NCBI GenBank assembly: GCA_965224085.1
Contig: CBDCYI010000004.1
Location: forward strand, 672,001-736,000
Direction: 5' to 3'
DNA: 64,000 bases
Source: Candidatus Marinacidobacterales bacterium
GTDB lineage: Bacteria > Acidobacteriota > Vicinamibacteria > Marinacidobacterales > SMYC01
Shown here: in pieces, positions 42,223-50,788 of the stretch
How positions within the stretch are numbered: the first letter of the stretch is position 1
How the letters are laid out: every line of letters starts with the position of its first letter
The notes under the pieces: model-generated
Databases searched by the model: none
What the model saw: only the letters and a program-made list of their open reading frames with translations
What the model was told of the DNA's origin: nothing
Made by a program: the position numbers and the translations under genes

Positions 42223-42941
42223 AAAACGAGCGACGTCCACACCATCCAACTCAGCGGCGGGAACGCGAACGCCATCGATGAGGCGCTTCTGAAGACGCTG
42301 ACCGATGGGCTTCGCGCGGCGCTCGACACGGGAAAAACGGCCGTGGTCTTGAAGGCTGTGATCGATTCTTCTCGGCGGGCCTGAACCTCAAATCGCTTCC
42401 CGAGACCCGCGAAGGGATGGCGTCGTTCGTCGCACGTTTCGAACAGGCGAATATCGAGATGCTTCGATTCCCGCTACCCGTCGTCGCGGCCGTCAACGGC
42501 CACGCGATCGCGGGCGGCTGCGTTCTCGCCTGCGCCGCCGATCTGAGGATTGGCGCCAGCGGGAGCCACAAGCTCGGTGTCTCCGAAGTCACGCTTGGAG
42601 TAGCCTTTCCCGCGAGTGCTTTCGAGATCATGCGGCACGCGCTCACGCCGGCTTTCGTCCCGGAAGTGCTCCTTTCTGGCAAGCTCCTCTCTCCGGAGGA
42701 AGCACTCTTGGCCGGGATGCTCCATCATGTCGTCGCGCCCGAAGAGCTTCTCGCCGAGGCCACCGCACACGCCGAAGAGTTCGGCTCGAAACCGCGTCAG
42801 GCCTTTCACCATAGCAAGCTTGCTTTGCGCGCACCGATGTTCGAGCGCATCGAAAAGACGCAAGAAGCGGCGCGCGAGGAATTTCTCGAATCTTGGTTCT
42901 CGCCTGAGGTCGTCGAGCGCCGAAAAGCGATGCTCGCATGA
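42220..42941 (+). pseudogene. Enoyl-CoA hydratase/isomerase family protein, frameshifted near 42352
   Basis: LKTSDVHTIQLSGGNANAID..AVVL, then after a missing base GCDRFFSAGLNL..AAVNGHAIAGGC. Confidence 0.8.
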
Positions 42942-43368
42942 AGCTCTGGTTCCTCTTGATTGGGCTAGTTGGGCTAATCAGCGCATGCGCCAAGCAAGAC
43001 GGCGTCGACAAGGTGGTCTTCAATGAAAAGATCGTCACCCTCGACCGTTCCTCTTACGGGCTGCAGACGATGCCCAGAGGGCCCTACATCGCCATTGTCC
43101 GCGGATTGAACGAGCGCGGCTGGCGGGTCGGAACGTACGCCGTCGGCGACGCCGTTATCGATCTCGTGCTCGAAGCTTACGAGCGAGCGAAGACGAAAGC
43201 ATCGTCGACGAGAGATGGGCCATCGAGCACGGCTTCATCCCGAGAGCGGAGCACTTCGCTCGCCTGAGAGCCCTTGGGCTCCATGTGGCCGCCCAGCATC
43301 ACCTCTATCTCGCCGCGCCGAGTCTCATCAAATATTGGGGACAGGAGCCCGCCGAGTGGGTGACGCCA
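42938..43368 (+). pseudogene. Amidohydrolase-3 (YtcJ-like) lipoprotein relic
   Basis: Lipobox LISAC, VFNEKIVTLD, large deletion, YAVGDAVID (normally HAxGD), frameshift near 43195 to RWAIEH..QHHLY..YWGQE, truncated. Confidence 0.7.
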
Positions 43369-43627
43369 GATAGTCGATGAATCCCATGTTCACCACGGCG
43401 AGATAAGTGCAGCAACCGAAGCCGAGCACACGATCGCCGCGGCGGGCGACGAGGTAGTTGAAATTGAATGGCCGACTCAAGCCGAGACGCGATTCCACGA
43501 GATGCTCGTAGAAATAGCGCTTGGGCATCTGCTCGTCGCGCGGAAAGACCCGGCGATGCAAGGCGTAAGAAGCGCGAAAGAGCGGAGAGCGAACGTCTTC
43601 GACCGACTCGATCAGGATTTCCGACAT
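43369..43627 (-). pseudogene. GNAT-like acetyltransferase, 3'-truncated
   Basis: YALHRRVFPRDEQ..YLVARRGDRVLGF..GFIDYL, then runs into antisense amidohydrolase sequence. Confidence 0.5.
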
Positions 43628-43654
43628 CGCAAAACGCAGGGTCAACTACCGTCC

Positions 43655-46345
43655 TCAGCTGACTTGAATGCGGGCCAACGCGTCCATCGCAGCGTTGGCG
43701 ACGTTCGTATCGGAGGCTTCCACTGCAGATTCTAGCACTCGCACGCTTCGAACCGAGCGGAGATTCCCGAGTGCTTCGAGTGCGAGGGCACGAGCGTCGC
43801 CCGGGTCGCCGGCGAGCCGCTCGAGCCTGTCCACCGCCCATGCGTCTGCGCGCGCTTCGAGCCCGAGGCATGCGATACGCGCGGCCATCGCGTCGCCGCT
43901 TAGCAAGCCTTGCTCCAAAGCGGCGCGCAACATGAGATCCACTGGCTTTGACGGACTTGTTTCGCGAAAACAAGCGCAGGCGAGCACGAGGTCTCTCTCG
44001 ACGAGATGCTCGACCAGACGAGCGCCGTCGTTTTTCAGACCACCCAAAAACGGCACGGAGCCGTGAAACGGTCCGCGGCTCAAGTTCAATGGCCGGACAG
44101 TGTCGCCATCGATCTGGCGCCAATCGGCACGCTGAATCAAGTTCACGATCGTGCTCGGTGCGCCGGTCCGGAGCGCGTAAGCGGTCAGGAACTCTTGGAA
44201 GGCCAGGTTGGGAAACGCAAAGGCGGTTGGACCTCGCAAAAGGCGAGTCTTAGAGACCTCCACCACGAGCTCTTCGGCGCTCATCGCCCCGATGCTGCGA
44301 AAGGCGACCGCTTGGGCGAGCGCCGCCGCATCTTCGGTGCGACGGCGGTCCTCGAGGTCCTTCTTCACGAGCGACACGCGGTCGGACTTGCTCATGAAAA
44401 ACGCCAATTGCGGCAAGAGGTCTTCGCGCGCGAGTGTCGATCCCGCGACCCGCAGGAAAGAATGAAAGATCCCCGTAACACTAGTGGGGACACGGGCGCC
44501 TTCGCGCCACAAGCGCCGCGCGAACGCGAGCAGTTGTGGATTACCGGCGCGCGCGCCTAACGTTTTCGTGAGCTGCGCGTAGAGAATCTTCGCCGATTCG
44601 GCGCGGACCCCGCCATTGTGCATCAGGAAGTCCATCGCTTCCCATTCGGCAAATGGCAGCATCTCGACCCAGTTTGGTATCTCGACCGCGCGCGTGCTCG
44701 GAAGGCGCGAGCTCACAACGAAGCGATTCAAGGGGTAGCGCCGCATGAAATGGTTCAAGGCATCGGTGCGGCGGGCGGTTCCTTCCGCGCTCAGGCCGTC
44801 GAGCCCGTCGAACAGGAACAGGAAGCGGCCCTCGTCGAGATCGCTCGCGAATAGATCTCGGTCGTATTCTTCCGCAAGAAACTCGAAGAGATCCTCGGAC
44901 TCCCGGAGGTCAGCAAGCGCCAGATAGATCGGCAGCGGCGACTTCTTTTCGTAGGCCAGGATGGGCTGCGCTGCTTCGTAGAACAAGCGATACAGCGCCA
45001 TGCTCTTACCGGAGCCCCCTTCACCGAACAACAGCAGACGCTGAAAGCGGCGCGAAAGCTCGCACGCGCTCTGTGGCTGTCCCAGAAAATCGGCGGCGAC
45101 CACATAGCCGACGAGCGGCTGCGTGCGCGGCATCCACCGCAGAAGCTGCGGGAAGTAGCGCTCCGGCTTTGGCCAGAAACGGTTCAGGCTTTCGCGCAAG
45201 CGACGGCGATAGCGGCCCTCGGAGATTTGATAAGCATCCGTCGAGCTCCCGCTCGCCGCGTTTTCGAAGATCGCCGCGTCTTTGCGAGAAAGATAGATCC
45301 CGGGCATCATCCATTCACCCTGGGATGGAAATTGCGAGCGCGCCGCGCTGCACGCGGCCGCGAGCGCGGCGTCCACGGGCTGGAGGGCGACGAGAGCCCT
45401 GTAGAGCTCGAGCGTATAGAGCTCGAGAAGCTCATCGGATAGGCTGTCACGTTGACTGAGCATGGCGGGTACCGCGTCGAGCAAGCCGTCGGCGAAAGTG
45501 GGCGCGAGCGCACCCGCTCCTGAGCCACCGCTCCAAATAACGAGGGCCGGGCTGCTCGCCGCGAGCACTCGCGCCAAGGCGACGAGCTCGATCTCGCCGT
45601 GCGCCGACGGGAAAACGGCTCCCTCCCCATCCCTGGTCGCGTCTGCAATGAGGTGCACGACGTCGAAATTCTGTGCGAGAAGGGCCTCGGCGGTGAGGTC
45701 GTCTCCACCAAGCTCAGAGCCGGCCTCGACCACTTGGGCGACGCCCTCGGCTTCGAGCTCGGAGAGAGCTTGGGCCGCGACGCGAGCCACCCGTGTCACG
45801 CGCGACGCTGACGGGCCGTAGCCGGATTGCGCCACGAGAAGCACTTTGAGCGGGTGTCTTGCCGCGACGGGCTGCGGTGCCCTCGCTCGAGGCGCTACGT
45901 ATCGTACGAGCGTCACGTCCCTGCACGTGCTCAAAAACTTCTCTTCTCGGGTGTCGTAGAGGCACTCCCAAGGAAGACGCGCGACGATCGTGGGCTCGAG
46001 CTTGAGCCGCACCCGCAGCCTGGCACCCGTATGGCGCACCTGCTCCCGCAAGTGGACGTAGAGGCGAAGGATCTCACCGTGAAACAACGCGTCGAATAGG
46101 CGAGCGCCCACATAGTGGAGCTCTCGCGAGCTCAGCTCTTCCAGTCGATCCGCGAATCGAACGAAGCTGCGATCGTCGAAAGGCAAATAGCAACGGACCG
46201 ACGGCGTTGTGCGGCCAAATTCCTCCTCGGCTTTGGCGCGGAACATCCCCGGTATCTCGTCGGGCCACACCGAAACGAATAGATCTCTATATTCGATGGA
46301 CAACATGACCGAGTGCGCCTCGTGGGGGAGATCGGCGCGCTCCAA
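43655..46345 (-). CDS. CHAT-like (degenerate) + NACHT NTPase + HEAT-like repeat protein
   Basis: CHAT hallmarks GARLFDALF, LRVRL, LPWECL, LVRY, PLKVLLV, FDVVH; NACHT GEGGSGKS, FLFDGLD, VVSSR, GNPQLL, FQEFLTA; Ala/Leu-rich helical C-terminus. Confidence 0.85.
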   Translation of the reverse strand: MERADLPHEAHSVMLSIEYRDLFVSVWPDEIPGMFRAKAEEEFGRTTPSVRCYLPFDDRSFVRFADRLEELSSRELHYVGARLFDALFHGEILRLYVHLREQVRHTGARLRVRLKLEPTIVARLPWECLYDTREEKFLSTCRDVTLVRYVAPRARAPQPVAARHPLKVLLVAQSGYGPSASRVTRVARVAAQALSELEAEGVAQVVEAGSELGGDDLTAEALLAQNFDVVHLIADATRDGEGAVFPSAHGEIELVALARVLAASSPALVIWSGGSGAGALAPTFADGLLDAVPAMLSQRDSLSDELLELYTLELYRALVALQPVDAALAAACSAARSQFPSQGEWMMPGIYLSRKDAAIFENAASGSSTDAYQISEGRYRRRLRESLNRFWPKPERYFPQLLRWMPRTQPLVGYVVAADFLGQPQSACELSRRFQRLLLFGEGGSGKSMALYRLFYEAAQPILAYEKKSPLPIYLALADLRESEDLFEFLAEEYDRDLFASDLDEGRFLFLFDGLDGLSAEGTARRTDALNHFMRRYPLNRFVVSSRLPSTRAVEIPNWVEMLPFAEWEAMDFLMHNGGVRAESAKILYAQLTKTLGARAGNPQLLAFARRLWREGARVPTSVTGIFHSFLRVAGSTLAREDLLPQLAFFMSKSDRVSLVKKDLEDRRRTEDAAALAQAVAFRSIGAMSAEELVVEVSKTRLLRGPTAFAFPNLAFQEFLTAYALRTGAPSTIVNLIQRADWRQIDGDTVRPLNLSRGPFHGSVPFLGGLKNDGARLVEHLVERDLVLACACFRETSPSKPVDLMLRAALEQGLLSGDAMAARIACLGLEARADAWAVDRLERLAGDPGDARALALEALGNLRSVRSVRVLESAVEASDTNVANAAMDALARIQVS

Positions 46346-46489
46346 CCGTCTTTCGACTATGAAGGTTTGCTATGAATGCTGCTCTTCTAAACTAGCACGA
46401 TCGGCGTTGTTAAGGTTGGATTGTTTCGGATAACGAGAGCACTTTGCGAATCGCCGCCACGGTCGCGTTCGCCCGCATTCGAAAGCTCA

Positions 46490-47275
46490 TCAAGAATGAA
46501 AATTAGCTTGCATCGTGCTCTGACGATAGTCATCCCCGTCGATCCGCACGTCCCGGCACATTTCGTAGAGGCGCGATCGCAGCCGCACGGTGATGCGATC
46601 CGCGAGCGTCGCCTCTGCCGCCCCCATGCGAGCGGATAGTTTGTTGACCGCGACCGGCCCCGTGCTCGTCGGCTTGTCGGAGTAGTTGGTCGTGATGATT
46701 GTCAGCTTCTTTTCGTTGTAGCGTTGATTGAGGATATAGAAGAATGTATCGAGAACCCAGAGCGTCGGGCTTTCCCCACCAAGGTCGTCGAGCACGAGCG
46801 GCTCCGCTTGAAGCACCGGCCTCAAGACCTCCATCTCCGTCGCTGCTGTATCCGGGTGATAGGAGCCCTTTATCTCGCGCAGCAAAGAGCGAAAATCGCA
46901 AAAAAGCGCCGGCGCCGCAATTTCGCGCTCGAGCAGAATTCGCCGAAGCACCGCCACCGAGAGATGGGTTTTCCCGACACCCGGCGGTCCGCTGAGCAAA
47001 AGCCCCGCCTCTGCGTCGGGAAATCGCTCCGCCCAACTCTCCGCGACTTTTGTCGCGCGTTCGAGGCTCGGCTTCAACCCGTCGAAGGGGCGGCCGCCGC
47101 TTCGCCCGTCGAACGCGCATTCTCGATAGCGCGTGGGGACACCGGCCTTCGCCATCGCAGAGTCGTGGCGGTCCCCGACCCAACAGGCGCAGCGAATGAC
47201 CGCGTCGACGCCGTCGCGCTCGACGCGCCTCCAGGAAGTGTCGGCGCACTCGGAGCAGGCGATGTGCTCGCTCAA
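46490..47275 (-). CDS. DnaC/DnaI/IstB-like AAA+ ATPase with N-terminal Cys motifs
   Basis: [57 protein letters not shown]; TTGA overlap with hspR. Confidence 0.88.
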   Translation of the reverse strand: MSEHIACSECADTSWRRVERDGVDAVIRCACWVGDRHDSAMAKAGVPTRYRECAFDGRSGGRPFDGLKPSLERATKVAESWAERFPDAEAGLLLSGPPGVGKTHLSVAVLRRILLEREIAAPALFCDFRSLLREIKGSYHPDTAATEMEVLRPVLQAEPLVLDDLGGESPTLWVLDTFFYILNQRYNEKKLTIITTNYSDKPTSTGPVAVNKLSARMGAAEATLADRITVRLRSRLYEMCRDVRIDGDDYRQSTMQANFHS

Positions 47276-47709
47276 GAGTCCTTCTTCACGAGATCGCGTG
47301 GAGGCAGGCGGACGAGGGCATTCTGGACACGGTCTTTCCAGCCGTCCTCTTGCCGGCCCATCTCCCGCTGAACGTATTCGATGAACTCGCTGATCTCGCT
47401 CTGCATCTTTTCCATCTTCTGCCGCATGTTGAGGATTATCTCGACGCCGGCGAGATTGACGCCCAGATCTCGCGTCAAGTTCAAAATCGTCTCGAGCTCA
47501 CGCAAATCTTCTTCGGCATAGAGACGCGTATTGCCTTCCGTTCGCGACGGCGCCAAAAGCCCTTCACGCTCGTAGAGCCGGAGCGTCTGAGGATGGATCC
47601 CGTAGGTCTCGGCGACGGCGCTAATCATGTAGTAACCCTTGCCCTTGCCCTTGCCCCGATTGCGCGGTCCGTCCGAGCCCCCTGTTGCTGATGGTGTCGA
47701 CTTTTTCAC
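47272..47709 (-). CDS. hspR: MerR-family heat-shock repressor HspR
   Basis: YMISAVAETYGIHPQTLRLYEREGLLAPSRTEGNTRLY..GVNLAGV; directly after dnaJ. Confidence 0.88.
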   Translation of the reverse strand: MKKSTPSATGGSDGPRNRGKGKGKGYYMISAVAETYGIHPQTLRLYEREGLLAPSRTEGNTRLYAEEDLRELETILNLTRDLGVNLAGVEIILNMRQKMEKMQSEISEFIEYVQREMGRQEDGWKDRVQNALVRLPPRDLVKKDS

Positions 47710-48824
47710 CTGGGTGCTCCTTCCGGACTCTTGCGGAGCGACTCGCGGGCGTCCATCGGGTTCAGCCGGTCGAGCTCACGCAAAAGCTCACGGGAGCGAT
47801 CGTCGTAGACCGTCGGGGTCACGACGTGAATAACGACGAACAAGTCGCCGCGACCCTCGGCGCTTCGACGCGAGCGTGCGCCCCGTCCGGATAACTTCAG
47901 CTTCTGTCCCGATTGCACTCCCGCCGGCACGCGCAACGTGACATCGCCATCCGGCGTCGGCACATCGAGCTTCGCACCGAGCGCCGCCTCGGCGAACGAG
48001 ATCGGCACCGTGCAAAACAAATTGTCCCCTTTGCGCGAGAACAGAGTGTCGGGCTGGACTTGAATATGGATGTAGAGATCCCCGGGACGGCCCGAGCCTC
48101 TTCCTTGATTGCCCATTCCCGGAACAGAAAGTTTGTCTCCATCCGAGACGCCGGCCGGGATCTCGACCGAGATCGTCTGCTCTTCCGTGTCGCGTCCCCC
48201 GCCGGCGCAATCGGGGCACCGCTCGCGCGCGACCATGCCCGCGCCGCGGCACTTTTCGCAGGGCTTCGCGAAGAGCATGAAGCCGCGCGTTTGTGTCGCA
48301 CGGCCCCGCCCGCCGCAAGCGCTGCAAGGCCGCGGCTGACTAGCGGGAATCTCCCCGAAACCTTCGCACGTTTCGCACGAAACTTGTCGGCCCACGCGAA
48401 AACGACTATCGATCCCATGGAGAGATTCCTTGAAAGAGATATTCAATCGGTGGTGAATATCTTCTCCGTCCGGGCGAGTGATACCAGAGCTCGCCGTCGG
48501 TCGGCGGAACAAGTCTGGAAAGATGTCGACCTCCCGACGTTCCTCGAGCGAGAAGTCGAACCCTTCGAAACCGTAGCGGACGGGCTCCGTGTGCCGCGGC
48601 GCCTCAGGCTCCGCTCCGATATTGTCGTAGCGCTCGCGGCGGTCCGGGTCAACGAGAACTTCGAACGCCTCCGCGATACGCTGGTAGTGCACCGCCGCGA
48701 CGTTGTCTCCAGGATTGATATCGGGGTGGTACTTGCGTGCGAGCCTTCGGAAAGCGCGACGGATTTGGGTTCTCGAGGCGCTCGCCTCCACGCCAAGAAG
48801 CACGTAATAGTCGTTCCGGGCCAT
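47706..48824 (-). CDS. dnaJ: Chaperone DnaJ (class A)
   Basis: J-domain with HPD, four CxxCxGxG repeats, C-terminal domain. Confidence 0.93.
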   Translation of the reverse strand: MARNDYYVLLGVEASASRTQIRRAFRRLARKYHPDINPGDNVAAVHYQRIAEAFEVLVDPDRRERYDNIGAEPEAPRHTEPVRYGFEGFDFSLEERREVDIFPDLFRRPTASSGITRPDGEDIHHRLNISFKESLHGIDSRFRVGRQVSCETCEGFGEIPASQPRPCSACGGRGRATQTRGFMLFAKPCEKCRGAGMVARERCPDCAGGGRDTEEQTISVEIPAGVSDGDKLSVPGMGNQGRGSGRPGDLYIHIQVQPDTLFSRKGDNLFCTVPISFAEAALGAKLDVPTPDGDVTLRVPAGVQSGQKLKLSGRGARSRRSAEGRGDLFVVIHVVTPTVYDDRSRELLRELDRLNPMDARESLRKSPEGAPR

Positions 48825-48836
48825 GTTCGTTTCTGT

Positions 48837-50735
48837 CTATTTCTTCTCGTCCGAGTCCACGATCTCGGCGTCGATGACATCCTCGCCGTCCAACTGAGAG
48901 CCCTCGGCGGCTTGCGAGGCGTCGGCGCCGGTCTCGTCGGTTTCTTGGTACATGAACTCGGCGAGCCGGTAGCTCGCTTTTTGGAGCACCTCCCGTGCGT
49001 TGCGAATCCCTTGCACCTCCTTTTCATTGAGCGCTTTGCGGGCATCGTCGAGTGCTGCCTCGATCTGCTTGGCGTCCGTTTCCGGGATCTTCTCACGGTG
49101 CTCGTTGAGAAGCTTCTCGGTCTGATAGATGAGGTTGTCGGTCTCGTTCTTCTCCTCGACTTCCTCGCGACGCTTTTTGTCGTCCTCGACATTGAGCTCT
49201 GCGGTCTTGCGCATCTGGTCGATTTCTTGGTCGCTGAGCCCGCTCGACGCGGTGATCGTGATCGCCGTTTGCTTGCCTGTCGCCATGTCCTTCGCAGAAA
49301 CGTTCAAAATGCCGTTTGCGTCGATATCGAACGTGACTTCGATTTGCGGCACTCCACGTACCGCCGGGGGGAGCCCCACAAGATGGAATCTTCCGAGGGT
49401 GCGGTTGTCCACCGACATCGAGCGCTCGCCCTGCAGGACGTGAACTTCGACCTGGGTCTGGTTGTCGGCGGCGGTCGAGAACACTTCGCTCTTCTTGTGG
49501 GGAATGGTCGTGTTGCGCTCGATGAGTTTCGTGAACAAGTTGCCGAGGGTCTCGATCCCGAGAGAAAGCGGCGTCACGTCGAGGAGCAAAAGGTCTTTGA
49601 CCTCGCCTCCGAGAACGCCTGCTTGTACGGCAGCACCGAGAGCGACCACTTCATCGGGATTGACACCCTTGTGGGGCTCCTTGCCGAAAAGCTCCTTCAC
49701 GATCTCTTGGACCTTCGGGATACGCGTCGAGCCGCCGACGAGCACCACCTCGTCGATCTCGGAAGCCTTGAGTCCGGCATCTTCAATCGCCTGCTTGCAG
49801 GGCGCGACCGTCTTTTGAACGAGATCGTCGATCAGCTGCTCGAGCTTCGAGCGCGACAGACGTCCCGAGAGATGTTTGGGTCCGCTGGAATCGGCCGTGA
49901 TGAACGGAAGATTGATCTCGGTCTCCATCGTCGAGGAGAGCTCGATCTTCGCCTTTTCCGCCGCTTCTTTCAGGCGCTGAAGCGCCATCCGGTCTTTCGA
50001 AAGATCGACACCGTCCGAGGACGAGAACTCATCGATGAGCCAATCGATAATTCTCTGATCGATATTATCGCCACCGAGATGGGTATTGCCGTTGGTGGAC
50101 TTGACTTCCACAACGCCTTCACCGACCTCGAGGATCGAGATGTCGAAGGTGCCGCCGCCAAAATCGAAAACGGCGATCTTTTCGTCTTTCTTCTTGTCGA
50201 GACCATAGGCGAGTGCCGCCGCCGTGGGCTCGTTGACGAGCCGCATGACTTCGAGCCCAGCGATTTCGCCAGCGTCCTTGGTCGCTTGACGTTGGCTGTC
50301 GTTGAAGTGGGCCGGAACGGTGATGACGGCTTGTTCAACCTTTTCGCCGAGATAGTCCTCCGCGGCAGACTTGAGCTTTTGGAGCACCATTGCCGAGATT
50401 TCGGGCGGCGAATAATGGTGCCCTTTAATGTCCACTCGGGCATCGCCATTCTCTTCTTTGACGACTTTGAAGGGGACCATTTGCATTTCTTCCGAGACCT
50501 CGTCGAAACGACGTCCCATGAAGCGCTTGATCGAGAAAATCGTGTTCTCGGGGTTGGTGATAGCTTGCCGCTTGGCGACTTGTCCAACGAGCCGCTCGTT
50601 GCCTTTCGCGAAAGCGACGACGGAAGGCGTCGTACGGCCGCCCTCGGGATTCGTGATGACCGCCGGGTTCCCACCTTCCATAACGGCCACGACCGAATTG
50701 GTGGTTCCCAAGTCGATCCCGATGATTTTGGTCAT
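48837..50735 (-). CDS. dnaK: Chaperone DnaK (Hsp70)
   Basis: [36 protein letters not shown]; ATG at 50735 after an AGAAGGAG RBS. Confidence 0.98.
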
Positions 50736-50788
50736 GGGTGCTCCTTCTCTGTATCCCTGGTATTCTGACAGAGATTCAGTCAAACAAA

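Follow-up and report, generated by a model that had tools for sequence, protein, structure and literature searches.

The window analysed here is a stretch of 64,000 nucleotides from the genome of a Candidatus Marinacidobacterales bacterium (GCA_965224085.1, contig CBDCYI010000004.1, positions 672,001 to 736,000). The gene under study lies on its reverse strand at 43655..46306 and encodes a protein of 883 amino acids, in which a CHAT/caspase-like domain lacking the catalytic His-Cys dyad precedes an intact NACHT NTPase and a short HEAT-like C-terminus. A preliminary description, made from the sequence alone, had reported an intact frame of 896 codons. This frame, initiated by TTG at 46345 (43655..46345, minus strand), is open throughout. 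However, the identical database protein and the full-length homologues all begin at a methionine 13 codons inside it (MxSxEYRD), so the coding sequence likely starts at the ATG at 46306. Residue numbers count from this methionine. The genome carries a single copy of the gene.

The features of this gene are all on the minus strand. The CHAT/caspase-like domain (residues 5-345, 45272..46294) is composed of an N-terminal subdomain (residues 1-135) and a caspase-like core (residues 136-345). Within the core, HLIADA (residues 218-223, 45638..45655) stands in place of the canonical HFIGHG, and LVIWSGG (residues 255-261, 45524..45544) in place of LVVLNAC. The NACHT NTPase core (44627..45037) was matched by Pfam, with Walker A GEGGSGKS at residues 428-435 (45002..45025) and Walker B FLFLFDGLD at residues 495-503 (44798..44824), and is followed by GNPQ (residues 588-591) and FQEFLTA (residues 703-709). 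HEAT-like repeats, for which the family profile matches alphaRep/HEAT chains and which are all-helical in the structure model, make up the C-terminus (approximately residues 796-883, 43658..43921). The motifs quoted in the preliminary description were all found in the protein where it had placed them. A terminator-like hairpin covers the stop codon (43641..43663), as a consensus match only, in a region with 11 such matches found against 8.4 expected. Rfam gave no match at E<=0.1 over 43200..47000, and NCBIfam matched the protein only over a weak stretch of HetF.

The N-terminal region had been taken for a CHAT domain on the basis of its motifs. With hmmscan, the window copy gave no PF12770 (CHAT) match at E<=1, and the genome search returned 11 orthologues or remnants that exceed the 24-bit cut-off of this family (26-43 bits). 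A phmmer search with residues 1-360 against 1.84 billion cluster representatives retrieved 6175 proteins at E<=1e-3, of which 2143 reach E<=1e-10. Outside the protein's own family, the matched stretch is residues ~60-350, with an identity of about 30%. PF12770 is present, at E 1e-17 to 1e-58, in 37 of the 38 remote matches that were sampled. The partner domains of the scanned CHAT homologues include NB-ARC with TPR, nSTAND, NACHT, WD40, pentapeptide repeats, FGE-sulfatase, kinase and Peptidase_C14. In a PDB profile search, the N-terminal alignment alone found no CHAT match, and the full-length profile matched 8tl0 at E 3.8e-4.

Structure prediction pointed in the same direction. The AF2 (AlphaFold2) model of residues 1-360, built from a 37-row alignment, has a predicted local distance difference test score (pLDDT) of 88.4 and a predicted template-modelling score (pTM) of 0.90. 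Foldseek against the PDB gave 48 matches at E<=1e-3 (Foldseek E 3.2e-9), led by Csx29/TPR-CHAT, SAVED-CHAT, separase, DdvA, gingipain and caspases; among the rows listed at this threshold, all but one are clan-CD proteases or other CHAT- or separase-like chains. With VIA-align, residues 5-345 of the model align to Csx29 over 291 residues with a Z of 19.3 and a root mean square deviation of 3.6 A; Z was 17-18 (17.8) for separase, 16.0 for SAVED-CHAT, 15.5 for DdvA and about 10 for caspase-6 and -7. By homology and by comparison of the predicted structure, the N-terminal domain is a CHAT/caspase fold, as had been proposed. Csx29/TPR-CHAT (Craspase), SAVED-CHAT, separase and DdvA share the two-part architecture of an N-terminal subdomain and a caspase-like core. 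Their activators are RNA-guided complexes, cyclic nucleotides, securin release and an unknown signal, respectively, and they have no fused NACHT. SAVED-CHAT retains a His-Cys dyad. For DdvA the dyad has been reported as H862/C907, and a dyad is described for craspase and separase too (PMC11506125).

The state of the active site was read from two sets of sequences. The first comprises 139 remote CHAT domains, left from 144 listed matches (P0065-P0208) after three proteins shorter than 350 aa and two matches spanning fewer than 200 query positions had been dropped; the second consists of 36 aligned full-length sequences of the family, which share 47-100% identity with the window protein. Asp222 (codon 45641..45643) occupies the column of the former catalytic His, which is His in 130/139 remote CHATs, with H-F-I-G-H-G opposite HLIADA. 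Gly261 (codon 45524..45526) occupies that of the former catalytic Cys, which is Cys in 128/139, with L-V-V-L-N-A-C opposite LVIWSGG. Within the family, His at the first position and Cys at the second are both absent (0/36 each). The first column reads D in 17 members, S in 7, E in 5, G in 2, P in 2 and K, T and Q in one each; the second reads G in 30, E in 2, D in 2, and S and P in one each. BLASTP alignments to the dyad-bearing proteins P0060 (E 1e-19) and P0142 (E 2e-25) place HYVGHA and HFIGHG over HLIADA; the Cys motifs of both sit beside gaps, and the INAC of P0060 is one register off WSGG. The loss of the catalytic residues, first suspected from the motifs, is thus evident against relatives with canonical HFIGHG and LNAC. 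The preliminary description had placed HLIADA correctly; its second segment, IWSG, was one residue out of register, as LNAC aligns with WSGG.

The absence of the dyad from all 36 members indicates that its loss is ancestral, and the occurrence of Asp222/Gly261-type replacements in every one of them places it before the split of the two bacterial families in which the gene occurs (f1 and f2 below). It is therefore well supported, from the aligned sequences, that this CHAT domain is a long-kept pseudo-protease and not one degrading copy. Similar losses are found elsewhere in the superfamily: 12/139 remote CHAT domains also lack part of the dyad. A FastTree phylogeny of the 139 remote CHATs and 11 members of the family recovers the latter as a single clade (support 1.0), with one of these dyad-less domains, P0188, as its sister (support 0.82). 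The other 11 are dispersed among active ones, which indicates that dyad loss recurs across the superfamily.

It could be argued that the protein is still a protease that uses other residues. The His, Cys and Ser residues kept in at least 60% of the family within residues 1-360 are H64, S73, H85, C115, S128, H218, S259 and S340, and two of them are both family-specific and nearly invariant, H85 (36/36) and C115 (35/36); S259 is Ser in 31/36. Against this, H85 and C115, like H64, S73 and S128, are located in the N-terminal subdomain and not in the core, the column of the former His differs widely among members, and S259 is replaced by Gly in 4 members and Thr in 1. The segment around the old active site is moreover the least conserved of the protein (0.46). 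The census of the 36 members found no conserved His or Cys in the caspase-like core except the structural His218, which is common to CHAT domains generally (137/139 remote), and no substitute dyad was seen. We consider retained proteolysis extremely unlikely. As a separate observation, His85 (codon 46052..46054, minus strand) aligns with a varied column in remote CHATs (R, V, S, A or E commonest), and Cys115 (codon 45962..45964, minus strand) with one that is mostly F, Y or L (C in 4/139).

The central module showed no sign of comparable loss. Pfam NACHT matches the window protein at E 9.9e-9 (35.7 bits, cut-off 26.7), and G428, G431, G433 and K434 of the P-loop, D500 of Walker B, R534, GNPQ and FQEFL are invariant or nearly so in the 36 members, in agreement with the intact NACHT motifs noted before. 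The full-length model (pLDDT 83.3, pTM 0.60) resembles NLRP3, NLRC4 and NOD2 in their NACHT modules (E 1.3e-10 to 1e-9); in the model, the protein has the fold of a nucleotide-binding leucine-rich repeat (NLR)-like protein, with nucleotide-binding domain, helical domain 1, winged-helix domain and helical domain 2 (NBD-HD1-WHD-HD2). With the family profile, HEAT-type alphaRep chains were found at E 5.4e-25 (positions 805-887); Pfam HEAT_2 is weak on the window sequence (E 0.011, 16.4 bits, under the cut-off of 27.7).

Bacterial fusions of CHAT with a signal transduction ATPase with numerous domains (STAND) have the same domain order, with CHAT followed by NB-ARC, NACHT or nSTAND and by TPR, WD40 or HEAT (P0142, P0071, P0084, P0093). 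Their CHAT domains are homologous to that of the window protein, at the identity given above for remote matches, and the STAND NTPase is central in both. They keep HFIGHG and LNAC, whereas the window family has neither residue of the dyad and occurs in only two families of one order, at one fixed locus. Caspase folds kept without a His-Cys dyad are also known from cFLIP of animals (PMC8195603) and from bacterial pseudo-orthocaspases (PMC6426788). Both are members of family C14 and lie outside CHAT, and neither carries a fused NACHT NTPase; the analogy is one of principle only.

The CHAT-NACHT gene family is limited to two families of one order and is present in single copy. Matches were found in 15/18 genomes of f1 and 7/8 of f2 (including the unpublished G027). 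A third family, f3, has 14 genomes in the set of 40 nearest relatives; none of these had a match, and neither did any of the 174 genomes from 17 other families of the class, f3 included. The homologues for which sources give a name are assigned to Vicinamibacteria. In sequencing data, 9 runs from 3 studies contain at least 0.65 of the sampled words, and two metatranscriptome runs contain 0.05-0.06.

All 16 loci fetched with long flanks have the same order: dnaK, dnaJ, hspR, a DnaC/IstB-like AAA+ gene and then the CHAT-NACHT gene, on the same strand. In the window the upstream operon occupies 46490..50734 (minus strand), with dnaK at 48837..50734, dnaJ at 47706..48824, hspR at 47272..47709 and the AAA+ gene at 46490..47275. 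The wider block of ~15 kb, with FecR-like, enoyl-CoA hydratase (ECH), rarA/mgsA, spoU and greA genes, is collinear as well. CHAT-NACHT protein distances correlate with the distances for dnaK, dnaJ and the AAA+ gene (Spearman 0.78, 0.77 and 0.64 over 28 non-independent pairs from 8 genomes). Judged from gene order and these distances, the CHAT-NACHT gene is vertically inherited at a fixed locus and does not belong to a mobile defence island.

This context bears on the view, taken in the preliminary description, that the protein is an immune receptor. An antiphage NLR of the bNACHT/Avs type would oligomerise on infection and arrest the cell by sequestering an essential protein on its dead CHAT domain. 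The window protein resembles bNACHT/Avs proteins in its NACHT with intact motifs, its tripartite layout and its model match to NLRP3, NLRC4 and NOD2. Bacterial NLR-related defence proteins have this effector-NACHT-repeat layout, and the N-terminal effectors listed for them include caspase-like peptidases (10.1101/2022.07.19.500537; 10.64898/2026.01.04.697583). Repeated gene loss, described below, is typical of costly defence genes. Against this stand the result of the PADLOC-DB search (0 families at E<=1), the housekeeping neighbours (dnaK, dnaJ, hspR, DnaC-like, rarA/mgsA, spoU, greA) in place of a defence island, and one copy per genome at one fixed locus with vertical descent over two families. 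The protein further differs from bNACHT/Avs in having no active effector, and its sensor end is under strong purifying selection (C-terminus 0.06-0.25 as the ratio of nonsynonymous to synonymous substitution rates, dN/dS), with no sign of diversification. The immune-receptor framing thus finds no support in the context, and we regard an antiphage role as unlikely.

The conserved position next to a chaperone operon raises another possibility, namely that the protein guards or reads the adjoining DnaK/DnaJ system, as proposed for E. coli bNACHT25. This member of the bNACHT group depends on DnaJ, and requires both DnaJ and the DnaJ-DnaK contact for phage sensing (PMC12169576). The gene lies 3' of dnaK-dnaJ-hspR-AAA+ on the same strand in 16/16 fetched loci, but the whole ~15-kb region is collinear in relatives, so that adjacency may be merely historical. 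The operon itself is present in 41/41 genomes, with or without the CHAT-NACHT gene, and is unchanged in the genomes that lack the gene, those of f3 and G023 of f2. The G005 locus has creatininase-like and thioesterase-like open reading frames between the operon and the gene. A scan for an HspR operator consensus found 2 matches at 3 mismatches (1.5 expected), so that no HspR-type repeat stood out from chance, and an inverted-repeat scan of the upstream regions of the operon and of the CHAT-NACHT gene found no repeat common to both. The CHAT-NACHT gene also has a promoter-like element of its own. The adjacency is conserved in the compared sequences and a functional link is only putative; we consider a role as guard of the chaperone system clearly improbable.

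Some further observations concern the operon. Co-occurrence of the CHAT-NACHT gene with the upstream AAA+ gene was considered and rejected, as the AAA+ gene is found in 41/41 relatives. This gene encodes a DnaC/DnaI/IstB-like protein of 261 aa, overlaps the hspR stop codon by 4 bases and, as the last gene of the operon, is 38-95% identical across 41/41 genomes of the order. Among its NCBIfam matches, all under the cut-off, PRK08116 is the best (117.9 bits). It is unusual for a helicase-loader-like ATPase to be fixed within a heat-shock operon. A frame of 951 aa at 47913..50768 (plus strand), antisense to dnaK and dnaJ, matches PF10712 (NAD-GH) at E 7.7e-163; since it overlies an Hsp70 gene, it was taken as an antisense artefact of PF10712 and not as a gene.

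The promoter-like element lies at 46384..46413 (minus strand), 107 nt before the ATG, and is composed of TTAACA (46413..46408), 18 nt and TAGAAG (46389..46384). At this place TTGACA (TTAACA in the window) stands 105-132 nt before the start codon in 10/11 orthologous upstream regions, with a TA-rich hexamer 16-18 nt past it. The TTAACA/TAGAAG element was not among the matches of a general consensus promoter scan. Its conservation speaks for a promoter, so far putative, belonging to the CHAT-NACHT gene itself. The leader that follows (46307..46383, minus strand) has short blocks in common with loci L021-L029 and L036, first CATAA/CATAG and then a GGGGAGCGCCG-like one.

To describe the selection acting on the gene, dN/dS was calculated by the Nei-Gojobori method for pairs of intact orthologues inside genera. 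Whole-gene values were 0.10 (G005-G014), 0.11 (G005-G017), 0.09 (G014-G017) and 0.16 (G008-G015). By region, the N-terminal subdomain gave 0.01-0.08, the caspase core 0.11-0.29, NACHT 0.04-0.19 and the C-terminus, as above, 0.06-0.25. These low values indicate that the dead domain is held under constraint, which is strongest in the N-terminal subdomain.

The state of the gene was classified in the 22 relatives with a CHAT-NACHT match. An uninterrupted full-length frame was found in 10 genomes (G005, G006, G008, G010, G012, G014, G015, G017, G025, G029), and the gene is cut by a contig end in two (G019, G027). Two more (G002, G013) have one single-base deletion with intact neighbours, which is indistinguishable from an assembly error, and in another two (G018, G031) the gene is broken where housekeeping genes are broken too. 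Six copies (G001, G003, G004, G016, G021, G033) are clearly decayed, with large deletions, several frame breaks or stops, and their flanking genes read through wherever flanks were fetched. Three of the six (G001, G003, G004) belong to the window's own genus: G001 retains residues 683-883 only, G003 retains residues 208-471 and 812-883 only, beside an IS1-like transposase, and the copy of G004 is in five pieces plus a TGA. At the G003 locus (L032, 6316..8095), a creatininase-like gene and the IS1-like transposase replace the first ~220 CHAT-NACHT codons. In G023 the gene is absent at the same locus.

The region downstream of the CHAT-NACHT gene holds a candidate partner. Directly 3' of its stop codon, at 43328..43645 (minus strand), lies the remnant of a GNAT acetyltransferase gene, with the first ~94 of ~230 codons. 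The intact protein of G006 matches Pfam Acetyltransf_1 at E 1.8e-9 and has a conserved acetyl-CoA motif. This GNAT gene was found in 9/41 genomes, all of f1, always directly 3' of the CHAT-NACHT gene and on the same strand, and was not found elsewhere in those 9 genomes. It has only 17 homologues in 5.8 billion clusters, 50-100% identical, and a dN/dS of 0.04-0.10. On this sequence evidence, the truncated GNAT gene is probably the partner of the CHAT-NACHT gene. A complex prediction with the CHAT domain, the C-terminal part and the G006 GNAT protein returned a score of 0.00, 'no answer', and counts neither way.

The downstream neighbours had been described as decayed, and they are. Relative to G002, the 3' part of the GNAT gene and about 900 bp are missing from the window, and 407 unrelated bases with an amidohydrolase fragment take their place. 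The enoyl-CoA hydratase in the 42417..43267 (plus strand) region is 174 aa long from its first start, against 242-283 aa in relatives, and is without the first 77 profile positions. The 109-aa fragment beside it matches only positions 254-305 of Amidohydro_3.

These findings raise the question of whether the window copy is itself a relic, that is, whether the family is functional and the partner has been lost here, with the gene drifting towards a pseudogene. Compared with its closest relative G002, the window copy has a dN/dS of 0.28 (CHAT 0.34, NACHT 0.22), against 0.09-0.16 for intact orthologues elsewhere. The copies of the same genus are decayed in G001, G003 and G004 and carry a 1-base deletion in G002, the window GNAT gene is truncated by rearrangement, and the -35 hexamer reads TTAACA where 9/10 relatives have TTGACA. 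On the other side, the 883-codon frame is intact with all invariant NACHT residues retained, and a protein identical to the window copy is on record from 2 contigs. The value of 0.28 is far under 1 and like that of neighbouring non-essential genes in the same comparison (orf627 0.26, FecR-like 0.33, spoU 0.41; dnaK, dnaJ and AAA+ 0.10-0.13). A relic is possible, though rather unlikely. The earlier suggestion that the gene is under selection thus applies to the family, for which purifying selection between intact orthologues is strong; it is weaker for the window copy, given its dN/dS, the decay in its genus and the truncated GNAT gene.

The dead CHAT domain might also serve as a decoy or regulator of canonical CHAT proteases, in the way that cFLIP acts on caspase-8. 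The window's own genome encodes one dyad-bearing TPR-CHAT protein (HFATH, LSAC), and no Peptidase_C14 was found in it. Canonical CHAT proteins are found in f1 and f2 and were not found in f3, which is the same distribution as that of the gene, and two remote dyad-less CHATs (P0080, P0149) are fused to a Peptidase_C14 domain. G010, however, a 97% complete genome in one contig, has an intact orthologue and neither another PF12770 nor PF00656. In addition, the number of CHAT paralogues, 0 to 17, is unrelated to the state of the CHAT-NACHT gene. G004 and G016 are without PF12770 and G021 has only its own decayed copy; as the CHAT-NACHT gene is decayed in all three, they fit either way. The earlier proposal of a scaffold, adaptor or decoy remains conjectural as a whole, and its version with an active caspase as partner is weakened by G010; we hold a decoy role to be most improbable. 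The TPR-CHAT protein, the sole canonical CHAT of the genome with an intact dyad (L048, G000 contig C11, 1366..3837 of the locus, minus strand), has a hydrophobic C-terminal tail that resembles a membrane anchor.

Taken with moderate confidence, the reading that we favour is that of a non-proteolytic NLR-like STAND switch, in which CHAT serves as a binding module and GNAT is the likely partner where present. The NACHT module would still undergo nucleotide-dependent opening and oligomerisation, and this would cluster the non-catalytic CHAT surface, so that a partner is bound and not cleaved. In the GNAT-bearing subclade, the acetyltransferase would be the most likely partner or output. As the window's GNAT gene is truncated and its NLR gene is under relaxed selection, this copy may be the orphan of a two-gene module.

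Several findings weigh against this reading. Conservation is lowest in the caspase core (majority-residue fraction 0.60, where NACHT and the N-terminal subdomain reach 0.74-0.77), with the minimum over residues 221-240 (0.46, 36 sequences), a pattern equally compatible with a spacer and with a binding surface. Decay of 6/22 copies beside intact neighbours, together with the absence from G023, indicates that the gene is dispensable. The GNAT gene was not found in f2 (0/8) or in 4/9 genera of f1 (g7, g9, g10, others), and the presence of intact CHAT-NACHT genes in GNAT-free genomes indicates that GNAT is not the general output. That the output is handed over to the separately encoded acetyltransferase is accordingly put forward only tentatively. 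The whole chain, from a vertically inherited NLR with a dead CHAT as docking adaptor to GNAT output and monitoring of DnaK/DnaJ, appears very improbable; if it were true, the protein would be an NLR that surveys proteostasis, as opposed to one engaged in pattern recognition of phage proteins.

Fusions of the CHAT-STAND and caspase-NACHT types are read as switches for death or defence that combine a sensor with a protease. No account of an intact NACHT joined to a CHAT domain without the dyad was found in the accessible literature, whose supplementary architecture tables may list such forms. In the family described here, the dyad was lost before two bacterial families diverged and the domain is still selected, which makes it a test case for roles of CHAT other than cutting. 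It may be to CHAT what cFLIP is to caspases, in showing a use of the domain apart from cleavage. The exclusively adjoining GNAT gene offers a concrete candidate partner. Not every CHAT-NACHT protein should be annotated as a protease-armed immune receptor.

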